A DNA stretch of 64,000 bases from Akkermansiaceae bacterium (GTDB taxonomy: Bacteria; Verrucomicrobiota; Verrucomicrobiia; Verrucomicrobiales; Akkermansiaceae). The stretch is taken from the NCBI GenBank assembly GCA_905182405.1, contig CAJJBQ010000002.1:1534483-1598482 (forward strand), written 5' to 3'. Positions 24,852 to 63,446 of this stretch are shown piece after piece; the first letter of the stretch is position 1, and every line of letters begins with the position of its first letter. The notes under the pieces are model-generated. The model saw nothing but the letters and a program-made list of their open reading frames with translations. It made no database searches and was not told the origin of the DNA. The translations under genes and the position numbers were made by a program.

Positions 24852-27509
24852 TTATTGAAAAATTGCGATGACTGAAACCGTCGCGCCATCGAGGGGCAAC
24901 TCGATGGTCGGGGAAAGGCTGCTCCTCCCGCCAGACCAACGAACAAAGCTAGCCCCCTCTTTCGGGATCGCCGTGAGCGTCGGTGGGAAATCGCGAAAGT
25001 ATTGCCCCGTCCAGGACGATTCGTCTATCTCAATGGTATTGATCTGAACGGTTCCCTTGGAAAGATCACTGGACTCGATGGTGACCGAGGCAAGGCCTTT
25101 GGAGAGATTAAAATGATCAATCAGATCCTGCCGCAATTTGTTGGGACGCGCCCTGGCAAACTCACGCATCGACTCTACATTGCGTTCCCAATGCGCCACG
25201 GAGAGAGGCTCATCTTCTTCCTTGTGTGGGATACCGAAACCGCGCGATTGGATACCTGCCCAACTCCAGCGGGATAGGTGGCGACCCATCTCGGGGCGGA
25301 TCACCCCAGCCATGGCATCAATACGCCCCAACACCCTCTCACTCTCAAACAAGGTATTCAAGAGATCGGCGCAACGTTGCACGAAGCGGTTCTCAAACTC
25401 ATCGCTCTCCAGCATTTCACGCAGCAAAAGAGTGCGCCCACCGCTGTTGGGCCAGCCGGTGCCATTCCCGGACGAATTGGTGTAGAACTCGAACATGTTC
25501 TCGTAGTCCGAATAATCGCGCCGCATTGCAGGGATGTAGACGTCCGGTTTCCACAAATTAAAACTGTAGTCCTGATCGTAGAGCATCCAGTGAAACTGTC
25601 CATCTGCGCCACTGCGTTGGCGCCAGCACTTGATGTTTCCGATGTCAAAATTCTGGCCGTATATGACAGCCAGATGGTAGTCGATGAAGTTGTCAATATT
25701 CAGGTAGAGATCTTCGACGGTCTGGTAGTCCGCACTGTTGTTCATCGAGCGGGATTGGATGAAATTGCGCATCTGGTTGTAAGTCGATGACGAACCCGAA
25801 TTGGCACTCCCATAGCCTTCAATCAGATCGATGTCGTCGGCCGAAACATCGTGGGTCGATTCCACATAGTGCTCGGAGAATTTTTCGCGGATGTTGTAGA
25901 TGCCCCAGTAGTCACCATTCACGTAGAGGACCGCCGGGCGATATCCCTGGGTATCGAGTCCGGTGCCATCGACGAGACTCTGCATCATGGCATCGCGGAA
26001 CATCGTAAAGTTCCCGTTCACAAAATAGCTACCATGACCTACAGGTGTACCAAAATCTCTGATCGGCGAGCGCGGGTAGGTCAGCCAGGTGCTCTGGTTG
26101 TCGTTTCCCGAATTTCGCAGGACGATCGACTCGAAGGAATCGACAGCTTTGTTAGGGAAGAAAGGATGACGAATTTTCCCGTAGCCATATTCGCTGCGCG
26201 CGAACAGCGCCATCGATTTCTGCGGGTATCCCCGCGATCCCCAACCGCCAAATATTTTTAAGCCAAGGTTGATGCGGAGCTTCTCTCCATCTCCGGGTTC
26301 GTAGACTTCGAAACTTGCCTCCACCTCGCGGTTGCGCTTCCAAGCGTTGGACGAATTGTAGGGGAAATTGCCAATAATGTTTCCACCGTTGGTAAACATC
26401 TGGTCTCCAAATCCGTAGAGGTAGCCATCAGCGAAATCGAAGTTGTCAGGATCGGCCGCCATCGAAATCACCGGGAGTTCGTGATCGGTGCCGAGGAAAT
26501 AACTATGGGTGACAATTCGACTGGCGGGAGAGCCATCCACCATCGCTCGGATAACAGCGGTGCTGCTAATTTCAATCGAGCCGTTGGCAACGATGGAACT
26601 GCTGTCCGGTTCGGAACCATCGGTAGTGTAGCGAATGACGTTTCCCTCGACCGGACCGACCAACTCCAAAGCGACCGGCCCGCCAAAAACACCTCCGCGC
26701 ACGCTGAATATTGGAGCTTGAATAAACGAGGCAGGGGCCCCCGCGCCGAATTCGTGATTCGCTTCGTCGGGAGTCGCCAGGGCGGAGCTGAACTGATAGA
26801 AAGTCTTAAGATCATCACGCGCGCGACCGACCGTCGTATCCGGTGTTAGTGGGCCAGGATCCAAGCGGTCGACTATTGTCAAATTTGGATAGCTGAGGAT
26901 GGCGGGTTCGCTGCCGTTGCCCAACTTAAAGGCAGCATGCAGTTCGCCAGCCGGAATTTCGTCACCCATTTTTCCCGAAGCGAAGACGATCAGGTAGTCA
27001 CCCGAATCAAGGATTGTGCCTGCCGGAAATGCCCACTTGTCCAGCCTGCTGTCGTTGTCGCTCAGGTAGTGCCCGCCTAAATCGGCAGATTTCTCACCGT
27101 GATTGTAGAGCTCTATCCAGTCCGGAAATTCTCCATCGCCATCAGTGAAAACGGCTTCGTTATTAGTCATGACCTCGTTGATAACGACGGACACCGGGAT
27201 CGTTTCCACCGGTCCCGCAATGACCCGGACGTAGCCCGTGCTTGCCCCATCCACGTGCAGGGTCAGCTTCACTCGCGAGGGATCCAGCACAGTCAGGCTG
27301 GCATTTTTCTGATTTACCCATGAGCCCGCCGAAAGATCCGGGGAGTGTTGCAATGTGTAAGCCAAGTCTTGCCCACTGGTATTTTTAACCGTCACCCCGA
27401 GTTGCGTCCCATCGTGTCCAACCTCGACAATTTTGATTTTAACCGCGTCTTGAGCCATTGTGAAATTGATCCCTAGCAAAAAGATCGCGAGACAGGGGCA
27501 AACATACAT
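24852..27509 (-). CDS. CotH kinase family protein with lamin-tail domain (LTD)
   Basis: ATG 27509 gives the signal peptide MYVCPCLAIFLLGINFTMAQ. The LTD block is VVINEVMTNN..FPDWIELYN..LSDN..W.FP. It also has a chitobiase-C-like IRYTTDGSEP and a CotH core (LGLKIFGGWGSRGYPQKSMALF...YVNGDYWGIYNIREK). The longer listed ORF overlaps the divergent gene. Confidence 0.85.
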   Translation of the reverse strand: MYVCPCLAIFLLGINFTMAQDAVKIKIVEVGHDGTQLGVTVKNTSGQDLAYTLQHSPDLSAGSWVNQKNASLTVLDPSRVKLTLHVDGASTGYVRVIAGPVETIPVSVVINEVMTNNEAVFTDGDGEFPDWIELYNHGEKSADLGGHYLSDNDSRLDKWAFPAGTILDSGDYLIVFASGKMGDEIPAGELHAAFKLGNGSEPAILSYPNLTIVDRLDPGPLTPDTTVGRARDDLKTFYQFSSALATPDEANHEFGAGAPASFIQAPIFSVRGGVFGGPVALELVGPVEGNVIRYTTDGSEPDSSSIVANGSIEISSTAVIRAMVDGSPASRIVTHSYFLGTDHELPVISMAADPDNFDFADGYLYGFGDQMFTNGGNIIGNFPYNSSNAWKRNREVEASFEVYEPGDGEKLRINLGLKIFGGWGSRGYPQKSMALFARSEYGYGKIRHPFFPNKAVDSFESIVLRNSGNDNQSTWLTYPRSPIRDFGTPVGHGSYFVNGNFTMFRDAMMQSLVDGTGLDTQGYRPAVLYVNGDYWGIYNIREKFSEHYVESTHDVSADDIDLIEGYGSANSGSSSTYNQMRNFIQSRSMNNSADYQTVEDLYLNIDNFIDYHLAVIYGQNFDIGNIKCWRQRSGADGQFHWMLYDQDYSFNLWKPDVYIPAMRRDYSDYENMFEFYTNSSGNGTGWPNSGGRTLLLREMLESDEFENRFVQRCADLLNTLFESERVLGRIDAMAGVIRPEMGRHLSRWSWAGIQSRGFGIPHKEEDEPLSVAHWERNVESMREFARARPNKLRQDLIDHFNLSKGLASVTIESSDLSKGTVQINTIEIDESSWTGQYFRDFPPTLTAIPKEGASFVRWSGGRSSLSPTIELPLDGATVSVIAIFQ

Positions 27510-27612
27510 TTCTATTCCTAACGGGTCACAGGTCCCAAAGCAAGATTTGTCCACCTGCCCGAGGGAGCGGCGAGCTTGACGTACCTTTGCAGCAGCATCA
27601 CGATTGGCACAA

Positions 27613-52921: not shown

Positions 52922-55900
52922 TCAGCGCTTGATCTTCACTTTCAATTGTTCCGCTCCTAATTGCTTCTTTGTCACCTTGCCATCCGACCATCGCACGGTC
53001 AGCCCGGATGCGTTCTCACCATCTGGAATCGCAAAGCGAACGATGGGTGAAGATTGTGAAAGATACGATCCCCCGGCGTAGACTTCCGATGAGAGCTGCT
53101 TTCCGCTGGTAAGCTCAACGGTGAGCAACGTTCCCACCTTCAGGGCCTCCGCTGCCTGAAGATCAACAGTCAATACCTTCCCTCCCACTGGCGGCACCGT
53201 CTCGTAAGCCTGCATCTCCCCGCCATTTACGGCGATCAGCAAGTCGGACCATGCATCGCCATTGAGATCGACGAGAACGACTGCCTTGGCATCTCCGGGA
53301 ATCACAATGCCACTTCGATCCGCTCTCAATCCAGTGAAAGTTCCGTCCCCAAACCCACGGAGAAGAGCTCCGCTTCCACCATCCATTCGGCCGGTTTCAA
53401 CTTGTGGCGCATGCGAGTTTTGCGACAGAAAGACATCCAGGTTTCCATCGGCATCAAAGTCACTGATGGCAATTCCATTCACGGGAGATAACTGCGCCAT
53501 CAAGGGCAACTCACGGAATTCAAACTTCCCACTTCCATCGTTGATGAGCACCCCACTCGCCAGGATATTGGCTTTAAATTTCTGAGCTGTGTTAAGAATT
53601 CCGGCATACAAGTCAGTCAATGTAGCAGAGGCAAAGTCATGAAACTTTGGCGTCTTTTTCCTCAAGAAAGGAATCGCACTACTGGAACAACTCAAACCAC
53701 GAATCGGGTAACACCTCTCCCCTTCAAACTCAGCTTCAAGAATACGCTTCTTCCCCGAGCCGTCGACGTCACCATAGTAGAGAAGCGCCGGAGCTTCATA
53801 CTTGGTATTCAATCCAACGTTCCCTACGACATAATCGATATCCCCGTCGTTATCGAGATCGCCACCAGCGAGACTATTCCACCATCCGGTCCGTTCAGAC
53901 AATCCGGCTTCCTTGGTTGCCTCTACCAGCTTCCCTTTCGAGTTTTGATAAAGTCTCACCGGGCCCCATTCGTGGGCAACCAGGAGATCAAGCCAGCCAT
54001 CGCCATCCACATCAGTCCAGAGAGCAGAGGTGACCAAGCCCCCGAATCGGCCTTCCGCAACATCAACGAACTTCTCCCCGGAGTCATTGCGCAACAACTG
54101 ACTTTGCGGAGATTCGGGATACGATCCCGGAGTAACTCTCCCACCGACGAACAAATCGAGATCACCATCGCGGTCATAGTCTGCCGCGCACACGATCGAA
54201 CCGCTCCCCATCGACTCCGGCAATACCCCGGTGCCTGCCTCGCTGAACTGTCCCTTACCATCGTTGAAGTAGAGTCGATCCTTAAAAACAAGATCTCCAT
54301 CCTCCCCTTCAACACCTCCGCTCACAATATAGAGATCAAGATCACCATCGTTGTCGGCATCAAAAAACAAAGGAGCCATATCCTCGCTTTTGGAATCAGC
54401 ATCGAACGCAGGCAATATCTTGCGACTAAATGAAGATCCTTCGCCTTCAGCCCCCTGATAAAGCCGACCCGAGCGTCCCGACGGATGTCCCACGTAAAAA
54501 TCCTCTTTACCATCGCGATCAACATCTCCCACAGCCAAGCCCGGGCCCATCTGTGAATGCTTTGCAGGCAGCAAGGGCTGACGCTCAAAGTCATTGAAAA
54601 ACTGCTCTCTGGGCACGACCCGGGGAATATCCTCGCTGCGAACAAACATCGTTTTCACCTCCTCTTTCTCAACAACCATCAACTTTCCCGGCTGCTCGAT
54701 GAGATAGCGCCTCCCCGCCTCAAGATTTTTTAAGATCTGCCTCCCCGACCCCGGCCAATCAATCACGACTCGCTCCACTTTCTCCGTCTCACCCAGTCCA
54801 AAGTGCAGCAGAGAATCATTACTCGACATAAACCCGCGCGAGGCAGTCAAGACCCGCATTTGTATCTTGGGTTCGCTCGCTGTTTCCACTCGCACCACCG
54901 CACCCAGAGCACTTGGATTCATCCCCTTACCGCGAAGCTCTAGAATCAGGCGATTCCCACCGGTCTGACCGTTGCGATAGATTCCCGGCTCCCCTCCGAA
55001 ATTATTCACAATGAGGTCCAAGTCCCCATCACCATCAAGATCACCCAGGGCTGCTCCATAGCTCACCGACAAATCACCCAGGCCCCAGCTCTCCCCGACA
55101 TTAGTGAACTTCAAATCACCGTCATTCCGAAATGCCCAGTTCTTCAACGCGAGTGGCTCCTTGTCATTCCAAAACGCCTTTCCTGCAGCCGACCCCTTGC
55201 TCATGATGAGCGCTTCCTCCTGGTTCCGCAGATCACTATTAAACCAATCCCGACTCATCCCGGTGGTGATAAAAACATCCTCCCGACCATCGCAATCAAG
55301 ATCGCCAAATTTGATCGACCAGGTCCAGTCCGTCGCCGCCATCCCGGTCAAAAAGGCCGCCTCATTAAATCGTCCGGCACCAGTATTCACATACACCGCA
55401 TTGCGCATATACTGCGCGGGCGTGGGCCAATTGAGAAACCACGAATCACTATCCTGCCCGGTCATATTCCCCATCGACATCTTTTCTTTATAGTGGTCGC
55501 TCCCCGCCATGTCCGAAGCCATGTAATCGAATAGCCCATCGTTATTAATGTCGGCGACGTCGGAGCCCATCGAGAACCAAGGCGTGTGAGGCAGGGCCCC
55601 AGGTGCCATGTCCTTAAAAGTTCCATCGCCTTGATTGCGGTAAAGATGATCGGCTCCATAAAAATCATTGGAGACATACAAGTCGGGATAGCCGTCGGCA
55701 TCGTAATCCCACCAGGTCGCAGAGAGACCAAATTCCGATTCACGAATTCCGGCCTCTTTCCCGACCTCGGTGAACGTTCCTCCATCGTTTCGGTAGAGAC
55801 GATCAAACTGACCCGAGGAGATTTTTTTATAGCCCTCTGGATACTTAATAATCCCCGCATATTCCTGCATGACCTCAGGCTGAATAATGGGTTCGCCATC

Positions 55901-56533
55901 TGGCCCTTTCACCAAACCGAAGCGGACATCTTTCAATTCTTCTCCCGGCGGAATTCGATTAGTCAGGAGATAGCCATCCAAATCACCATCGAGATCATAG
56001 TCACTAAATGCCATCATCATACTCGCTCCCTTAAAATCCAAACCGAGAGCCTTTGCCTGATCCTTAAACCCACGTCCTTCCTGATTCAAGAAAAGTCGAT
56101 TAGGCGCGTCAAAGGCACACAAATAGAGATCCAACCATCCATCGCCATTGACGTCCACCCAAGTGCATCCAGCCCCCCACACGCCCGGTGACGCCATTCC
56201 CATTTCGTCTGTGACATCCTCAAATTTAAAGCCTCCAAGATTTCGATAAAGCCGCCCACCATCGGTCATCCGGGAAAGAAAGACATCAGCGTCACCATCA
56301 TTATCGAAGTCTCCAATACACACCCCTCCTCCGGTAAACGACCCACTGATCTCCGCCGCCCATTTCGCGGGTGGGTTCCACTCCCTCACGAAATCGATTC
56401 CAGTCCGCTCTGCTCCAAGCCGATCAAACAAGGTTTTTCCCTCCGAAGGAAGGGGTTGGGCCAGAACCTCAGATTCAAGCGCCCAAGCAACTGAAGTGAC
56501 AAAAAGAAGAAGAAATGGGAGAAGAGATTTCAT
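52922..56533 (-). CDS. CRTAC1 family protein (FG-GAP/VCBS repeats with two ASPIC/UnbV domains)
   Basis: It has a signal peptide (MKSLLPFLLLFVTSVAWA) and many DxDGDGxxD repeats. UnbV blocks are LILELRGKGMNPSALGAVVRVE...SRGFMSSNDSLLHFGLG and, at the C-terminus, TVELTSGKQLSSEVYAGGSYLSQSSPIVRF. Confidence 0.85.
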   Translation of the reverse strand: MKSLLPFLLLFVTSVAWALESEVLAQPLPSEGKTLFDRLGAERTGIDFVREWNPPAKWAAEISGSFTGGGVCIGDFDNDGDADVFLSRMTDGGRLYRNLGGFKFEDVTDEMGMASPGVWGAGCTWVDVNGDGWLDLYLCAFDAPNRLFLNQEGRGFKDQAKALGLDFKGASMMMAFSDYDLDGDLDGYLLTNRIPPGEELKDVRFGLVKGPDGEPIIQPEVMQEYAGIIKYPEGYKKISSGQFDRLYRNDGGTFTEVGKEAGIRESEFGLSATWWDYDADGYPDLYVSNDFYGADHLYRNQGDGTFKDMAPGALPHTPWFSMGSDVADINNDGLFDYMASDMAGSDHYKEKMSMGNMTGQDSDSWFLNWPTPAQYMRNAVYVNTGAGRFNEAAFLTGMAATDWTWSIKFGDLDCDGREDVFITTGMSRDWFNSDLRNQEEALIMSKGSAAGKAFWNDKEPLALKNWAFRNDGDLKFTNVGESWGLGDLSVSYGAALGDLDGDGDLDLIVNNFGGEPGIYRNGQTGGNRLILELRGKGMNPSALGAVVRVETASEPKIQMRVLTASRGFMSSNDSLLHFGLGETEKVERVVIDWPGSGRQILKNLEAGRRYLIEQPGKLMVVEKEEVKTMFVRSEDIPRVVPREQFFNDFERQPLLPAKHSQMGPGLAVGDVDRDGKEDFYVGHPSGRSGRLYQGAEGEGSSFSRKILPAFDADSKSEDMAPLFFDADNDGDLDLYIVSGGVEGEDGDLVFKDRLYFNDGKGQFSEAGTGVLPESMGSGSIVCAADYDRDGDLDLFVGGRVTPGSYPESPQSQLLRNDSGEKFVDVAEGRFGGLVTSALWTDVDGDGWLDLLVAHEWGPVRLYQNSKGKLVEATKEAGLSERTGWWNSLAGGDLDNDGDIDYVVGNVGLNTKYEAPALLYYGDVDGSGKKRILEAEFEGERCYPIRGLSCSSSAIPFLRKKTPKFHDFASATLTDLYAGILNTAQKFKANILASGVLINDGSGKFEFRELPLMAQLSPVNGIAISDFDADGNLDVFLSQNSHAPQVETGRMDGGSGALLRGFGDGTFTGLRADRSGIVIPGDAKAVVLVDLNGDAWSDLLIAVNGGEMQAYETVPPVGGKVLTVDLQAAEALKVGTLLTVELTSGKQLSSEVYAGGSYLSQSSPIVRFAIPDGENASGLTVRWSDGKVTKKQLGAEQLKVKIKR

Positions 56534-56598
56534 AAGAGATGGTCGAAAAGATGCTACTTGATCAGCGCTGTCATACTCAAGAGACTAATCCATTCACA

Positions 56599-59500
56599 AT
56601 GTCATCTTACTTTAAATCTCTCCTCATTTCGCTGGCGATCGTCCTATTCTCCGGCTCCGCGATTGCCGAGCTGATTGCCCACTGGCCCCTCGATGGCAAT
56701 GCCGACGACGCCCTTGGCAATCACAACGGCGCGGGCTCATCAGTCGTCTACGGTGCAGACGGCGCGGCGGCCCATACCGGCACGGCGGCAGAGTTTAACG
56801 GATCGAATTCCACCATTACGATTCCCTTCAGCTCCGATCTCAATCCCGACAGCTTCACCCTCTCGATGTGGGCCAATGCCGACAGCACTAGCGGCTTCGC
56901 CTCCGCGGTAACGAGCCGCGATGACGTGGCAGGTCCAATTACCCATGGCTACATCATCTATAATAATAGCGGCGGGAATTGGGATTTCTGGACAGGAGAT
57001 GGAGACGTAGGCTGGGATAGCCTGGCAGGACCTGCAGTCGCGACAGGCAACTGGACCCACTTGACCATCACATACGATGCCGCAACAGACACCAAATCTC
57101 TTTGGGTCAATGGCGCTCTGGCGGTCTCCGACAATACCCCTCAATCTGGACCCACCCAATACGTACCAAACGGCACTATTGAGTCCGAAAATCTCAACAT
57201 CGGCTCAGGCGCTGACGATGGCTCCCAGTTTTACTTTGATGGGCTCATCGACGATGTCGCCCTTTGGGACGAAGCTCTCTCCTTGGCCGAAATCCAGGAC
57301 GTGATGAATAACGGCGTCCCGGGGGGATCTCCATCTGTGACCTCCTTCACCGCGAGTCCTCCCTTCGTCGACTCTGGTCAGAGCACGACCCTTTCCTGGA
57401 CAAGCAACAACGCCACCAGGGTGAACATTTCCTCTCTCCCCGGAGACTTCCCGGCCACCGGAAGCATCGTCGTTTCCCCGACCGCGACAACAACCTACAC
57501 TCTCACTGCCACTGGCGATTCCCCTCCGGTTGCAACCAGCCAGATCACGGTGGGAGTCGACGTCGAATCACTCGACCCGATCATCACCGAATTCCTGGCC
57601 GACAACGAAACAGGACTCACCGACTCCGATGGCGACTTTTCCGACTGGATTGAAATTCTCAATCCCAATCCCTTTGCCATCGAGATCGGCGGATGGCATC
57701 TCAGCGACGATCCGCTCGACCCACAAAAATACAGCATTTCCTCGCAGCAAATCAATGCCGGCGGTTACCTCATCCTCTTCGCCTCCGACAAACCCGGCGC
57801 GGTCAACTTCCTCCTCAGTAAAGGCGGCGACTACCTCGCTCTCAGCGATCCCGAGGGGAACATCACCCAAGAGTTCTCACCTTCTTACCCCGCACAATTC
57901 GACGACGTCTCCTACGGTAGGAGCGACGATGGTAGCACGACTTATCTCGTCCCGACTCCCGGCAGTCTCAATGGCCCGCCACGCAACGAACTAGGCCCGG
58001 ATATTGCTTCAGCCACTCTCGATCCCACCGCTCCCGGAGAAAATGACGACCTCACCATCTCTGCCATTATTTCCCCACGGATTGGCACCATCACCGGTGC
58101 GACCCTGTTCTATCGAATCGGCTTCGGAGCAGAACAATCGATTTCGATGACTGCCGGAGCAGGTGATTCCTTCACCGCCATCATCCCCTCCTCCACCTAT
58201 CGCGCAGACGACATGGTCCGCTGGTATCTCATCGCAACGACCGCCACCGGCGAAACCACCCGCGCGCCCGCTTTCTCCGATCCGCTTGAATCGGCCCGGT
58301 ATTTTGGCACCGTCATCAGCGACCTCGCGATCTCCGTCGATCAGCCGGTGATGCACTGGTTCGTGGAAAACCCCGGAGCAGCCGACACCCGGGGCGGCAC
58401 CCGGGGCTCGCTCTATTTCGAAGGGCAATTCTACGATAATATTTTCTGTCGCATCCGTGGCCAAAGCACCGCCAACTGGCCGAAACACAAATACAAATTC
58501 GACTTCTATCGCGGAGGGCATTTCAAATGGGATCCCAACCTTCCCCGCGTGGAAGAGATCAACGTCAACTCGCACTATCGCGATTCCTACGTTCGCGAAA
58601 ACTCCATCTTCGCTTTCCTCAACGAAGCTGGTGCCCTCGCTCCGGACACTCGCTACCTCTGGATTCGCCGCAACGGAAGCGACGTCGGCCTCTTCACCTT
58701 CGTCGAGCAGGTCGATGAAGATTTCCTCACTCGCCGCGGCATCGATGCCGCCGGATCGATGTATAAAGGAATCAACGTTCCTGCGACCCTTTCGCCAACC
58801 GTGAATTCCAGCCTCTATCGCAAAGTTCTCCGCAAAACCGAGCCTTACACCGATCTCAGCGATCTCACTGCCAACATCAACATCGCCAATCCAGATCGCT
58901 TCGACTACGTCGCGGACGAAGTCAATCTGCCGAACTACATCAACGTGATGGCTGCGATGTGTGTTCCCTTTAATCACGACCAACTGACAAAAAACTACTA
59001 CGTCTACCACGACCTCGATCGTGAGGAATGGTTCCGCATTGCCTGGGATGGCGACCAGGGCCTACCCACCGGGAAAAAAAACACCACAGAAAACTGGGCC
59101 AGCCCGCTCTATGGCGACGCGCGCCATACGCAAGAACTTCAAGGCGGAAATCCAAACCCAAATTGGCAAAACCACCTCCACGCCGCCATCCTTGACAACC
59201 CGGTGACGCGACAAATGTACATGCGCCGCGTGCGCACCTTGATGGACCAATACCTCGCGATCCCCGAGGCCGGACCATCGACGACCATCCTCGCGGAAGG
59301 AGCCACCGCGAGCTACTTTGTCCCAGTCGACAACTCTCTCGAATCCACCTGGTTTACCACCACCTTCGATGACTCAGCATGGCCCACCGGAAAGTCGGCC
59401 TTCGGATACGAAAACAGCCCGGGCGACTATGTCGACTTGCTCGAAACAGTCGTCAGACCCACCGACAGCGTTACTGGCGCGACTTCCATTTATTTGCGCT

Positions 59501-61140
59501 ACCACTTTGAAGTGGTCGATCCTGCGCAATTCCAAAACCTCATCCTACGCATGCGCTACGATGATGGATTTTCGGCCTATCTAAATGGCTCTCTGGTTGA
59601 ACAGCAAAACATCACAGGCACCGTAGCATACAATTCCACCGCCAGCTCTCACTCCGATTCCCTCGCCGTCAATTTCGTCGACTTCCCACTCGCCGGAGTG
59701 ACTCTCAATGCGGGCACCAATATCCTCTCCATTCAGATCATCAACCAATCATCACGCAGCAGCGATCTTATTTGTGAACCCGGGTTAATTGATCAACCGG
59801 GTGCTTCCGGAGGATACTTTGAAAACCTCCTCGGAGGATTTCGAAACACCATCGCAAATGATGTCATCGTCGATCAAGCTCTCTGGTCCGGAGCTGGAAT
59901 CACCAATTTTAACAATGGATACAATGGCGTGATCAACACCTCTCTGCCCAACCGGCGGATCGCTCTCTTCGACACCTATGGTCCGGCTGGCTCGGGCCTC
60001 ATTCCAGACTCTCAGCCTTCGAACGCTCTCGTTAATTTCAATCAGATCGAAACCAATCCCGCTTCTGGCAACCAAGATGAAGAGTTCATTGAGCTCACCA
60101 ACCCAAATAACTATGCCGTCGATATGTCCTCCTGGACTGTCAACGGAGGAGTCGATTTCACACTCCCTCCCGGAACGGTCATTCCCGGAAACGGCAGTAT
60201 CTACCTCTCACCGAATGTTCGTAACTTCCGCTCGCGCAGTCCCAGCCCGACCGGAGGTGAAGGAAATATTGTCGTCGGACACTACCAGGGCCACCTCTCC
60301 AACTTCTCCGAGACACTCACCTTGTCTGACGCCTCCGGCACCATGGTTGCCCAGACCACCACTCCGAATATGCCCAGCGACGCCCAGCAGTTTCTCGTCA
60401 TTAGCGAAATCATGTATCACCCGGCCGATGGTTCGGGCCTCGAATTCATCGAACTGTTCAACATAAGCGACAGCCTGACCCTCAACCTGGAAGGAATTGC
60501 ATTCACTGGTGGCATTAATTATACCTTTCCTGCTGGCACAACACTTGCTCCCGGGAATTACATCATGATCGATTCTCTCGACTTCGCCAATGGCACCGCT
60601 CTTTCAAATGGTGGAGAGATCTTGAAACTCGAAGACTCCTCGAGCGGAACGATCAAGGAATTCCGCTACGAAGACGATTCACCGTGGCCACTGGAATCCG
60701 ACGGAAACGGACCCAGCCTGATCCTAATCAATCCTTTTTTAAACCCCGATCCCAGCCTGGCCTCCAATTGGCGTTCCAGCGCGGAAAACGGCGGCAATCC
60801 TGACGAAACCGACGCCACCACCTTCAGCGGTAACCCGAATAGCGATGCCAACCAAAACGGCGTACCCGACCTCATCGATTACGCGCTCGGGGACGGAGGA
60901 ATCATGACATTGACTACAGACTCACTCATTTTCCAACGCCCGATTGGAATAGACGACGTCAATTTGATTATCGAATCATCCACCGATCTCTCAACCTGGA
61001 GCGATACAAGTCCCTTCCTCGAAAATCGACAAGCCACCTATCCCGGCGGTGGCATTGAGCGGATCGAATACTCCCTTTCGCCCTCTGCTCCTTCAGAGAA
61101 ATGGTTTATCCGCATTCGAGCGGAAATAATTTCACTTTAA
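56599..61140 (+). CDS. LamG + LTD + CotH kinase + galactose-binding-like + 2x LTD multidomain exoprotein
   Basis: ATG 56599 gives MSSYFKSLLISLAIVLFSGSAIA, a signal peptide. The LamG block runs LIAHWPLDGNADDALGNHNG...FDGLIDDVALWDEAL. LTD blocks are ITEFLADN..FSDWIEILN, EEFIELTNPNNYAVDMSSW and LEFIELFNISD. The CotH core is FCRIRGQSTANWPKHKYKFDF...WIRRNGSDVGLFTFVEQVDEDFL. The ATG at 56539 would leave only a 5-bp divergent gap. Confidence 0.85.
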   Translation: MSSYFKSLLISLAIVLFSGSAIAELIAHWPLDGNADDALGNHNGAGSSVVYGADGAAAHTGTAAEFNGSNSTITIPFSSDLNPDSFTLSMWANADSTSGFASAVTSRDDVAGPITHGYIIYNNSGGNWDFWTGDGDVGWDSLAGPAVATGNWTHLTITYDAATDTKSLWVNGALAVSDNTPQSGPTQYVPNGTIESENLNIGSGADDGSQFYFDGLIDDVALWDEALSLAEIQDVMNNGVPGGSPSVTSFTASPPFVDSGQSTTLSWTSNNATRVNISSLPGDFPATGSIVVSPTATTTYTLTATGDSPPVATSQITVGVDVESLDPIITEFLADNETGLTDSDGDFSDWIEILNPNPFAIEIGGWHLSDDPLDPQKYSISSQQINAGGYLILFASDKPGAVNFLLSKGGDYLALSDPEGNITQEFSPSYPAQFDDVSYGRSDDGSTTYLVPTPGSLNGPPRNELGPDIASATLDPTAPGENDDLTISAIISPRIGTITGATLFYRIGFGAEQSISMTAGAGDSFTAIIPSSTYRADDMVRWYLIATTATGETTRAPAFSDPLESARYFGTVISDLAISVDQPVMHWFVENPGAADTRGGTRGSLYFEGQFYDNIFCRIRGQSTANWPKHKYKFDFYRGGHFKWDPNLPRVEEINVNSHYRDSYVRENSIFAFLNEAGALAPDTRYLWIRRNGSDVGLFTFVEQVDEDFLTRRGIDAAGSMYKGINVPATLSPTVNSSLYRKVLRKTEPYTDLSDLTANINIANPDRFDYVADEVNLPNYINVMAAMCVPFNHDQLTKNYYVYHDLDREEWFRIAWDGDQGLPTGKKNTTENWASPLYGDARHTQELQGGNPNPNWQNHLHAAILDNPVTRQMYMRRVRTLMDQYLAIPEAGPSTTILAEGATASYFVPVDNSLESTWFTTTFDDSAWPTGKSAFGYENSPGDYVDLLETVVRPTDSVTGATSIYLRYHFEVVDPAQFQNLILRMRYDDGFSAYLNGSLVEQQNITGTVAYNSTASSHSDSLAVNFVDFPLAGVTLNAGTNILSIQIINQSSRSSDLICEPGLIDQPGASGGYFENLLGGFRNTIANDVIVDQALWSGAGITNFNNGYNGVINTSLPNRRIALFDTYGPAGSGLIPDSQPSNALVNFNQIETNPASGNQDEEFIELTNPNNYAVDMSSWTVNGGVDFTLPPGTVIPGNGSIYLSPNVRNFRSRSPSPTGGEGNIVVGHYQGHLSNFSETLTLSDASGTMVAQTTTPNMPSDAQQFLVISEIMYHPADGSGLEFIELFNISDSLTLNLEGIAFTGGINYTFPAGTTLAPGNYIMIDSLDFANGTALSNGGEILKLEDSSSGTIKEFRYEDDSPWPLESDGNGPSLILINPFLNPDPSLASNWRSSAENGGNPDETDATTFSGNPNSDANQNGVPDLIDYALGDGGIMTLTTDSLIFQRPIGIDDVNLIIESSTDLSTWSDTSPFLENRQATYPGGGIERIEYSLSPSAPSEKWFIRIRAEIISL

Positions 61141-61199
61141 GGATTGATCTCACTCCATCAAAAATAGTAAAAATTCTGGAATTATTCATTGCCGATATA

Positions 61200-63446
61200 G
61201 TGAAATATCTCCCCACCCTTCTCCTAAGCTGCCTGGCTGCATCCAGTGTCCAGGCTGATCTCATCGCCCACTGGCCACTCGATACAGATGCCAGCGATTC
61301 CACAGGTAATGGTCACAACGGCACCGTCGTCGATGGTGCCGTTAATTTCGGACAAACCGGAGCCAATGCCAATACCGGCACGGCGGCCGCCTTTCCCGAC
61401 AATGGCCACATCGATGTCACCTTCGATGCTGCTCTCAATGGCGAGAGCTTCACCGTCGCCCTTTGGGCCAATGCCGCCAGCACTGGGGGATTTTCCTCAC
61501 CCATCACAAGCCGGGACGACGCGCCTGGATTGCTCACTCACGGCTATATCCTCTATAACAATAACGCCGGAAATTGGGATTTCTGGACCGGAGACGGGGA
61601 TCCTGGCTGGGATGGTTTGGCTGGCAGCGCGGTTACGATCAGCACCTGGACCCACCTCGCGATTACTTATGACGCCGGCACCGACACCAAGACCCTCTGG
61701 ATCGATGGCGTCTCCTCGGCAACCGATAACGTGCCACAATCCGGTCCGACGCAATATGCGCTAAACGGAACCGTTGAGATGGAAAACCTCCATATCGGGG
61801 CCGGACAAGACGACGGCCTCAATTTCTACTTCGATGGCCTCATCGACGATGTCGGCGTCTGGAACGAAGCCCTCGACCAAGCCACCATTCAGAGCATCAT
61901 GGCCAATGGTATCAGCAGCGGGCTTCCCGATCCCACCCTGTCAGGGCCCAACCCTCTCGACCTGGTTCTCGACGGAACAATTCAGAGCTTTAATGCCCCC
62001 ATTACAAACAACGGGCAGACTCAAAGTCTCACCGTGTCCGCGGCGACCTTTAACGGCGATGCCAATTTTTCCGTCACAACTCTGCCCGGCGTAATTGCAC
62101 CGGGAGGCAGTGATAATCTCGTCATCAACTTCGATCCATTAGGGGCCAACGGGGCGTTCTCCGCAGATCTTGAAATTACCAGCAACGACTCGCTGAACCC
62201 CCTCCGCACCATCACGGTAGAGGGAAGCATTCACGATCCCGTGCTCGTCACGGACGCCACCGTCGATCTGGGCGAAAACACCACCGGAACGATCACCCTC
62301 ACCAACGGCGGGGCCAAGCGTCCTCTGCAGGTCTCCGGCGTCGATATCGTTGGAGATACCGATCACTTTGATTTCACCTCAATTCCAAGCACCATCGCTG
62401 CCAATGGCGGAACCGACGACATCGACATTTCTTTTGATGCCTTGGGCCTCGAAGGTGCTTTCAGCGTCACCCTGACGATTAATACCGATGACCCGATCAA
62501 CCCCGCCATCATTGTCGTGGTAAATGCCGAAGCTCCTTTCAGCGAAATACTCGTCGCCTGGTGGCCTCTCGATATCGATGGCACCGACGCCAGCGGTAAT
62601 GGCTTCGATGGCACGGTTGTTGGAAGCCCTATCGCCAGCGCCGGTGCAAATGGCGCGACCAGCGGCTCACTCGACTTCGATGGTTCCACGCGAATCGATG
62701 TCCCTTTTGATTCCGCTTTGAACCCCGAGAGCTTTTCCATCACTCTTTGGGCCAATGCCGATACCACGGACGGTTTTGCTTCGCCCATCACCAGCCGGGA
62801 CGATGTCGCTGGTCCACTCACTCACGGATACATCATCTATAACGACAACGGCGGAAACTGGAATTTCTGGACCGGAGACAGCGATAACGGTTGGGATACT
62901 TTGCCGGGAGATGCGGTCACTCTCAGCACCTGGAGCCACCTTGCCATCACCTATGATGCTGGAACCGACACCAAGAGTCTTTGGATCGACGGAGTGCTCT
63001 CGGCTTCTGACGACGTCCCCCAATCAGGACCCACCCAGTATTCCCCCAACGGCACACTCGAAAGCGAAGATCTGCACATTGGTGCAGGTCAGGATGATGG
63101 AAACAACTTCTGGTTTGATGGTAAGATCGACGACGTTGGCCTCTTCCGGGTCGCTCTATCCGAGGAAGACATCGCCTCAATCATGCTCAATGGCATTGCA
63201 GGCTTCGCCGGCGTTTCACAGTCTCCTGAGATCACCGCCCTCGCCCTTGACCCGGCAAATGGCAATGTCACCATTACCTTCAACTCTCTCAACGGTGCAG
63301 TATATGTCATCGAACGCTCCACCGATCTTGAAAGTTGGTTTGAGCTTACCGATGACCATGATAGCGACGGGAATTCGACGAATTTCATCGACAGCACCGT
63401 GCCTCCCGCAACGACAAAGATCTTCTATCGCGTCACTCGACTCTAA
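61200..63446 (+). CDS. Secreted protein with two LamG (concanavalin A-like) modules, Ig-like domains and a C-terminal sorting-type beta domain
   Basis: GTG 61200 gives (M)KYLPTLLLSCLAASSVQA, a signal peptide. LamG modules lie at about 61257-61915 and 62548-63200. Both carry ITSRDD..THGYI.YN..GNW.FWTGD...LWIDG...PQSGPTQY...FDG.IDDVG. Confidence 0.8.
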   Translation: MKYLPTLLLSCLAASSVQADLIAHWPLDTDASDSTGNGHNGTVVDGAVNFGQTGANANTGTAAAFPDNGHIDVTFDAALNGESFTVALWANAASTGGFSSPITSRDDAPGLLTHGYILYNNNAGNWDFWTGDGDPGWDGLAGSAVTISTWTHLAITYDAGTDTKTLWIDGVSSATDNVPQSGPTQYALNGTVEMENLHIGAGQDDGLNFYFDGLIDDVGVWNEALDQATIQSIMANGISSGLPDPTLSGPNPLDLVLDGTIQSFNAPITNNGQTQSLTVSAATFNGDANFSVTTLPGVIAPGGSDNLVINFDPLGANGAFSADLEITSNDSLNPLRTITVEGSIHDPVLVTDATVDLGENTTGTITLTNGGAKRPLQVSGVDIVGDTDHFDFTSIPSTIAANGGTDDIDISFDALGLEGAFSVTLTINTDDPINPAIIVVVNAEAPFSEILVAWWPLDIDGTDASGNGFDGTVVGSPIASAGANGATSGSLDFDGSTRIDVPFDSALNPESFSITLWANADTTDGFASPITSRDDVAGPLTHGYIIYNDNGGNWNFWTGDSDNGWDTLPGDAVTLSTWSHLAITYDAGTDTKSLWIDGVLSASDDVPQSGPTQYSPNGTLESEDLHIGAGQDDGNNFWFDGKIDDVGLFRVALSEEDIASIMLNGIAGFAGVSQSPEITALALDPANGNVTITFNSLNGAVYVIERSTDLESWFELTDDHDSDGNSTNFIDSTVPPATTKIFYRVTRL

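Follow-up and report, generated by a model that had tools for sequence, protein, structure and literature searches.

A putative CRTAC1-like selenoprotein gene and its loosely linked CotH-kinase neighbour in the genome of an Akkermansiaceae bacterium

The locus described here lies in a 64,000-nucleotide stretch of the genome of a marine Akkermansiaceae bacterium (assembly GCA_905182405.1, contig CAJJBQ010000002.1, positions 1,534,483 to 1,598,482; hereafter, the window), where the gene of a secreted CotH kinase-fold protein (CotH-1) stands head to head with that of a CRTAC1-like FG-GAP/UnbV propeller protein. Both products are extracytoplasmic, and the two genes are transcribed outwards from a 103-bp gap. 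The plus-strand gene encodes one protein only if the UGA codon at 29464-29466 is decoded as selenocysteine (Sec), and the evidence supports this decoding. Overall, the explanation which we favour, with modest confidence, is that of an envelope redox propeller carrying Sec and a CxxC motif, whose genes are loosely linked with those of CotH kinases within Verrucomicrobiales. This linkage is non-random yet loose, labile and lineage-specific rather than an obligate module, because most genes of both families are unpaired, orthologous pairs have come apart and the association is absent beyond Verrucomicrobiales.

As judged from its open reading frame (ORF), translation and Pfam matches, the minus-strand gene CotH-1 (24852..27509) codes for a secreted protein with the layout LTD - CHB_HEX_C/Fn3_assoc - CotH (LTD at 26862-27191, CotH at 25140-26006). 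The longest ORF is 24852..27713 and the likely start is the ATG at 27509, from which the protein has a short N-terminus resembling a signal peptide, MYVCPCLAIFLLGINFTMA. The start codons and N-termini delimit the divergent intergenic region common to both genes at 27510-27612; a consensus scan found no sigma-70-like site inside this gap, the consensus being uninformative for this phylum. The gene of the CRTAC1-like protein (~1,325 residues) occupies 27613..31590 on the plus strand, as concluded from ORFs, translation, Pfam, an AlphaFold2 model and a fold search. The initial annotation had proposed a secreted LTD-CotH protein starting at 27509, a membrane-anchored FG-GAP/UnbV protein starting at about 27613 and a divergent gap of about 100 bp, all of which agree with the domains, the signal-peptide-like N-terminus of the former and the N-terminal transmembrane anchor of the latter. 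It had also described the CRTAC1 part as fused to a TlpA-type thioredoxin domain and a TPR tail. These domains are present, but there is no uninterrupted frame: under translation table 11 the gene falls into two ORFs in the same frame, 27604..29466 and 29467..31590, separated only by the TGA at 29464-29466.

This UGA (plus strand, 29464..29466; U621 when counted from 27604, in the motif DL-U-MFFWRRV) is predicted to be a Sec codon because of its recurrence in a motif of paralogues and homologues, a covarying hairpin, the Sec machinery of the genome and the co-occurrence with a CxxC motif. When the whole genome (G000) was searched with the read-through protein, 12 matches contained a single TGA in frame, which in 11 of them was located in the same motif, DL-U-SFxWRQVV. 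The window copy included, there are 11 Sec paralogues in total, the others being found on contig C1 (976236-979976, 688083-691553 and 667686-670757) and on contig C2 (880749-884774, 884587-888156, 391957-395679, 2154861-2157890, 85622-88624, 177145-179475 and 1665807-1668731). Another 24 TGA-bearing genes were found in G033, G037 and G040, which represent two further families of the order. At this column a TGA is also present in Verrucomicrobiales (Roseibacillus, Akkermansiaceae), Planctomycetota, Acidobacteriota (Vicinamibacteria, Thermoanaerobaculia) and Gemmatimonadota. At 54-92% identity, all orthologues from the genus have retained exactly one TGA. Moreover, the genome possesses tRNA-Sec together with SelA, SelB and SelD, all three proteins scoring above the curated cut-offs. 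Since TGA ends 505 of 1,804 long ORFs (28%), it is a normal stop in this genome, and a genome-wide reassignment was ruled out.

It might be argued that translation really ends at the TGA at 29464, or that this codon arose recently as a nonsense lesion, in which case the locus would consist of two genes or a pseudogene, without any thioredoxin/TPR fusion; the frame is indeed interrupted under table 11, and Rfam gave no match to a SECIS (selenocysteine insertion sequence) family at the locus. Set against this are the presence of the TGA at one and the same column in 11 paralogues as well as in dozens of homologues spanning four phyla, its retention as the single TGA of the diverged orthologues, the compensatory changes in the hairpin that follows the codon and the complete Sec machinery. 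The ORF downstream of the TGA, moreover, has no export signal of its own, though all its domains are of extracytoplasmic types. With conservation, hairpin and machinery combined, a lesion or a gene boundary is extremely improbable and was rejected. Most likely, the codon would be read by SelB, aided by the hairpin in the coding sequence. The selD match itself (C1:1063874-1064803) contains one in-frame TGA, and SelD of this bacterium is therefore probably a selenoprotein as well.

The SECIS-like hairpin of the window copy, GCGGCG-GGUCG-CGCUGC (plus strand, 29478..29494), was recognized by folding and covariation, its stem beginning 11 nt after the UGA. Every Sec copy is able to fold into a GGUC(G)-looped hairpin of 6 bp at this same distance of 11 nt. 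In an alignment of 33 sequences, taken from this genome, from three genomes belonging to two further families and from several phyla, 97% of the helix cells were paired, whereby the middle pair (24:34) appeared as GU, CG, GC and AU in 16, 6, 6 and 5 sequences, respectively, and was never unpaired. The covariation score reached 0.269 compared with 0.128 after shuffling, and none of the 500 shuffles scored as high. The coupled positions are the silent third base of an Arg codon and the first base of a Ser/Ala/Pro codon, and the constraint therefore acts at the level of RNA. Non-Sec homologues that share the WRQVV peptide form only 3-5 of the six pairs. Two further registers or hairpins are seen in subfamilies. 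The window copy and L024 (G040:C16) contain the rarer WRRV variant, with a stem built from CGG CGG ... codons; the hairpin has thus been kept through different codon solutions.

A GGUC-type apical loop resembles that of fdhF. With SelB-dependent genes of the Escherichia coli fdhF type, the present genes have in common a hairpin with such a loop at a short fixed distance after the UGA, and the genome its selA, selB, selD and tRNA-Sec. In contrast to known SelB-dependent selenoprotein genes, a single family is present here in 11 copies in one genome, and the predicted Sec is located in a helical insert of a beta-propeller protein rather than in the thioredoxin-fold or formate-dehydrogenase context of the catalogued selenoproteins. 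ASPIC/UnbV FG-GAP proteins have already been listed among the selenoprotein gene candidates of the planctomycetes P1 and P2 (Kim et al., 2016, PLoS One, S9 Table; PMC4807772). These candidates are the same kind of split gene pair, and the homologue closest to them, from an acidobacterium, has G instead of Cys at the site; they are given there as lines of a supplementary table, without a family analysis, the CxxC link or the CotH neighbourhood. A literature search for selenoproteins combined with ASPIC/UnbV/FG-GAP returned nothing relevant in main texts, the family being found only in that table. With the present family, 11 selenoproteins would be added to this genome, each of which gene callers would report as two ORFs or a pseudogene.

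The CRTAC1-like protein starts with a transmembrane anchor (27673-27738), followed by an N-terminal domain, the FG-GAP propeller and the predicted Sec. Behind the Sec come UnbV_ASPIC (about 29848-30057, Pfam), a TlpA/ResA-like thioredoxin domain (about 30193-30606, with Redoxin/AhpC-TSA Pfam matches and a WCESC motif) and a tail of TPR repeats (about 30829-31563), all on the plus strand. In the translation and the model, the CESC motif (C897/C900, 30292..30303) lies 276 residues after the Sec. The Pfam scores were 132 bits for FG-GAP_3 and 54.7 bits for UnbV_ASPIC (cut-off 23.4), while NCBIfam has no model for the core of the family. The AlphaFold2 model of residues 270-1030 reached a pLDDT (predicted local distance difference test) of 88.8 and a pTM (predicted template modelling score) of 0.90. 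Its top PDB match in Foldseek was murine CRTAC1 (9ETN), with a template modelling (TM) score of 0.70 on the target, an E value of 1e-24 and 609 aligned columns. The two proteins share the FG-GAP propeller and UnbV/ASPIC; however, their identity is only 18%, and the bacterial protein has in addition the membrane anchor, the N-terminal domain, a two-helix insert with the Sec, the thioredoxin domain and the TPR tail. A phmmer alignment of the core with 9ETN left the Sec-bearing insert uncovered, and the search of profile A1 against the PDB was swamped by TPR matches. The thioredoxin domain has the fold of ResA (1ST9, 2F9S) and TlpA (1JFU, 4TXO), with TM scores of 0.64-0.89 on the target, and shares their CxxC (WCESC); it differs from them in being fused to a propeller selenoprotein, whereas they are anchored domains standing alone. 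The neighbourhood contained no partner genes of the cytochrome-c or Sco/Cox type. In the model, the Sec occupies the first turn of a helix right after a strand, inside the two-helix insert, and the CxxC lies just ahead of a helix N-terminus.

The thioredoxin CxxC motif is intact in 10 of the 11 Sec paralogues of this genome and in 27 of the 29 Sec forms from elsewhere whose tail is long enough, and in just 13 of 77 non-Sec homologues, the remainder reading SxxC, AxxS and similar; in phylogenetic terms, these counts are not independent. The full-length propeller-UnbV-thioredoxin-TPR layout is also abundant among homologues that lack Sec, mainly in Acidobacteriota. Because Sec forms almost always keep the CxxC and non-Sec homologues mostly do not, the co-occurrence points to a selenol/thiol redox relay, as far as this can be read from sequence comparison. 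The redox role which the initial annotation had suggested for the thioredoxin/TPR-bearing protein is strengthened by the predicted Sec and its tight co-occurrence with the intact CxxC. The Sec column itself is less favourable to this interpretation: in non-Sec homologues it is occupied by A, S, D, E, G, N, H, Y or Q and by Cys in only 1 of 77, which is atypical for a catalytic Sec. This rarity of Cys lowers the confidence in a classical catalytic Sec, not in the insertion of Sec.

The CRTAC1-like protein would accordingly be pictured as a redox protein of the periplasm or the cell surface. Its proposed reactive centre is the selenol at the N-terminus of the helix inserted after the last propeller blade, which might be recycled by the fused CxxC thioredoxin domain, whereas holding the target would be the task of the propeller and the TPR tail. 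The Sec/CxxC link makes such a relay outside the cytoplasm a testable function. Neither a CcdA/DsbD-type electron donor nor any other constant neighbour of the Sec paralogues was found, the upstream genes being varied. Three of the Sec-type propeller genes have as immediate neighbours on their 5' side small related proteins of 240-275 residues (C1:975397-976119, C2:880045-880872 and C1:666778-667530; two on the same strand and one divergent). At their C-termini, the small proteins carry a PEP-CTERM-like sorting signal consisting of IPEP/VPEP, a hydrophobic stretch and RRRK, and they may represent a second recurrent neighbour of the Sec genes.

A short subfamily with the motif DG-U-x-C-[LV]-W has no thioredoxin domain and contains a Cys two residues after the Sec. 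Its members are one gene of this genome (C2:177145-179475), which is at the same time one of the CotH-paired genes, and the loci L036, L066 and L073. Their hairpin is a different and longer one (GGGCUGU...ACAGCCC) with compensatory changes of its own. In these proteins the selenol is proposed to be recycled by the Cys two residues downstream.

CotH-family kinases are very common in non-spore-forming bacteria, and to our knowledge nobody has established their role there. CotH-1 and CotH-2, the latter from a second pair in the window (see below), scored 141.1 and 116.8 bits, respectively, against a PF08757 cut-off of 23.8. A phmmer search of the PDB with CotH-1 gave no match, and a profile was needed: the one built from the CotH domains of this genome matched Bacillus cereus CotH (5JD9) with an E value of 1.7e-19. 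In the profile alignment, QNFD and YDQD of CotH-1 and NHD and WDGD of CotH-2 fall on the NFD and WDYD motifs of the B. cereus protein. The catalytic-loop Asp of CotH-1 is kept within QNFD (25635-25658, minus strand) and its metal-binding Asp within YDQD (25560-25583); the corresponding residues of B. subtilis CotH are D228 and D251 (PMC7821199). The catalytic loop of CotH-2 is canonical (HD....N, here HDQLTKN). The loop of CotH-1, FDIGNIK, has Asn at +3 and Lys at the usual Asn column, compared with the canonical Asn at +5, and because of this unusual spacing CotH-1 may be a weak kinase or a pseudokinase. Kinase activity of these CotH proteins is plausible from their conserved motifs.

The genome contains 37 matches to PF08757, and an iterated hidden Markov model search gave the same number. 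On a simple, non-overlapping map of 2,790 genes, obtained after dropping small ORFs, 21 genes were of the FG-GAP/UnbV type. Seven CotH/FG-GAP-UnbV pairs were directly adjacent, compared with a mean of 0.56 after shuffling, and none of the 20,000 shuffles reached seven. Restricting the shuffle to the 600 genes of at least 550 residues raised the mean only to 0.70, again with 0 of 20,000 reaching seven. With curated Pfam assignments, one of the "CotH" partners proved to have LTD only and one propeller partner lacked UnbV, so that five strict pairs are left; this is still far above chance, the expectation being ~0.45 when scaled from the label shuffle rather than obtained by a new one. Apart from relatives of the CotH/LTD/LamG type, FG-GAP/UnbV formed the largest cluster among the 72 immediate CotH neighbours. 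In the tree of CotH domains, the paired genes are spread over at least five separate lineages, in all of which unpaired sisters occur as well; CotH-1 and CotH-2 are far apart, and in only one sister pair of CotH genes are both members paired. Because of this distribution, the pairs are regarded as repeated juxtapositions and not as copies of a module, and a single co-duplicated origin of all of them was ruled out.

Several observations speak against a tight association, beginning with the loss of two pairs under the strict assignment mentioned above. In this genome, 30 of the 37 CotH genes and 14 of the 21 propeller genes are unpaired, and the orientation of the seven pairs is not fixed, four being divergent (with a short shared promoter region) and three tandem. 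Among orthologues of the window pair, the divergent layout is kept in G011 (84% and 92% identity) and G045 (85% and 86%). In G041 the orthologues (80% and 79%) reside on different contigs with no partner within ~10 kb, and in G009 the CotH gene is 7.5 kb away from the propeller orthologue (81%), behind four genes. More distant orthologues of the pair had no CotH neighbour. In G037 and G040, a CotH gene was present within 8 kb in 6 of 31 propeller loci, about four of these being directly adjacent; the excess is weak, with roughly 3-4 expected as estimated from CotH counts. Of the 80 homologous loci examined, which represent many phyla and 1.3 Mb of sequence, four had CotH within 10 kb, all belonging to Verrucomicrobiales, which contributed about nine loci, whereas none of the ~66 loci from Planctomycetota, Acidobacteriota, Gemmatimonadota and others had a CotH neighbour. 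The widespread propeller-thioredoxin-TPR architecture of Acidobacteriota therefore works without CotH.

Of the functional two-gene module which the initial annotation had read from the recurrent pairing, the non-chance adjacency is thus upheld (7 pairs versus 0.56), while a fixed module is contradicted by the unpaired majority of genes. A conserved divergent orientation was likewise not borne out, given the mixed orientations in this genome and the loss of the pair in G041 and G009 next to its retention in G011 and G045. The expected enrichment in related genomes received a divided answer: direct adjacency does occur in G037 and G040, and hence in two other families of the order, but the excess within 8 kb is weak and nothing was seen outside Verrucomicrobiales. 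Across G001-G046, representing the same genus and order, the CotH copy number is bimodal, with ~20-40 or more in many genomes and 0-4 in others. Close propeller homologues were found only in the CotH-rich genomes, and the CotH-poor genomes of the order have none; G027 departs from this pattern in that it combines 29 CotH matches with the lack of any close propeller homologue.

The main rival is an adjacency without function, in which large, fast-turnover exoprotein families pile up in the same flexible regions through duplication and rearrangement. Such a reading fits the richness of the window in other exoprotein genes (CBM9, LamG/Ig-like) and the presence of further CotH genes and LamG proteins among the CotH neighbours; the lability of the pair within the genus, the origin of the paired partners from many subfamilies with no sign of co-evolution and the absence of adjacency beyond the lineage where both families expanded are also consistent with it. 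On the other hand, the excess of pairs persists when only large genes are shuffled (0.70 versus 7), and FG-GAP/UnbV is the sole sizeable family besides the CotH/LTD/LamG cluster among the 72 neighbours, the others being pairs or singletons. Independent CotH lineages have each gained a propeller neighbour, and four of the seven pairs have a common short divergent promoter region. We therefore regard the flexible-region explanation as a real possibility, although the balance leans against it. In the preferred reading of a loose but non-random linkage, both families were greatly expanded in Verrucomicrobiales and their side-by-side placement arose repeatedly, which might reflect selection for co-regulation of envelope or matrix proteins acting together. 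The CotH kinase might phosphorylate the propeller protein or a target shared with it; alternatively, the LTD and lectin-like domains of CotH proteins might co-assemble with the propeller protein.

A stricter alternative is that CotH-1 is the dedicated kinase of its CRTAC1-like neighbour, forming an enzyme-substrate module like that of CotH with CotB/CotG. The CotH of B. subtilis acts as a kinase on coat proteins, and its gene adjoins cotG (PMC7821199). Bacillus CotH (5JD9/5JDA; B. subtilis CotH with CotB/CotG) and CotH-1 have in common the CotH domain with both conserved Asp residues and a kinase gene located beside another gene, which in Bacillus is the substrate gene. The enriched adjacency, the predicted export of both proteins and the conservation of the catalytic and metal-binding Asp would be in line with such a module. 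However, CotH-1 is a secreted protein of ~885 residues with LTD and chitobiase-C-like domains, one of 37 paralogues in a non-sporulating verrucomicrobium, its catalytic-loop Asn is unusually spaced and its neighbour encodes a Ca-binding propeller protein instead of a Ser-rich coat protein. By reading of its sequence, the propeller protein lacks a Ser-rich repeat region like that of CotB/CotG. Considering, in addition, that 30 of the 37 CotH genes have no propeller neighbour and that the orthologous pair is apart in G041, a dedicated enzyme-substrate pair is quite unlikely.

A broader idea would be that the CotH kinases and CRTAC1-like propellers of marine Verrucomicrobiales, many of the latter with Sec and CxxC, form one extracellular system, in which phosphorylation and selenol/thiol redox chemistry build or remodel the surface matrix. 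It is speculative and we consider it improbable. If true, it would be a bacterial counterpart of the animal secretory-pathway kinases acting on calcium-binding matrix proteins and would give CotH its first role outside spores. In agreement with the initial annotation, which knew of no described system linking the two families, a literature search for such a link returned nothing relevant in main texts. The repeatedly evolved and statistically solid linkage gives the CotH kinases of non-spore-formers a concrete candidate partner, namely a family of predicted exported selenoproteins which annotation splits in two.

The second divergent CotH/FG-GAP-UnbV pair, which had been noticed at 52922-61140 of the window, is real. 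Its propeller partner (52922-56533, minus strand) is a secreted FG-GAP protein with two UnbV_ASPIC domains, and has neither a TGA nor a thioredoxin domain nor TPR. CotH-2 (56599..61140, plus strand; longest ORF from 56539) is a secreted protein of the layout LamG - LTD - CotH - 2x LTD. The assignments are based on Pfam and the N-termini, and both proteins have classic signal peptides. The two pairs can not be viewed as copies 1 and 2, as had been done, since CotH-1 and CotH-2 belong to different clades and the propeller subfamilies differ (Sec with thioredoxin and TPR versus double UnbV without Sec); the duplication of one module was ruled out on the same grounds.

The genes downstream of the first (31733-35065) and the second pair (61101-63446) code for further large exoproteins, one with CBM9 domains and the other with two LamG and HYDIN/ASH Ig-like domains. 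Elsewhere in the genome, at C1:39033-42876 and C1:1593040-1596428, N-terminal ORFs with LTD are followed directly, on the same strand, by ORFs with a CotH domain; the two ORFs of the pair C1:1593040/1595124 overlap by 85 bases. Both loci look like frameshift-split CotH genes, which might be due to a pseudogene, an assembly error or recoding. At C2:83149-85134, a LamG/thrombospondin-repeat protein is encoded between a CotH gene and a Sec propeller gene.

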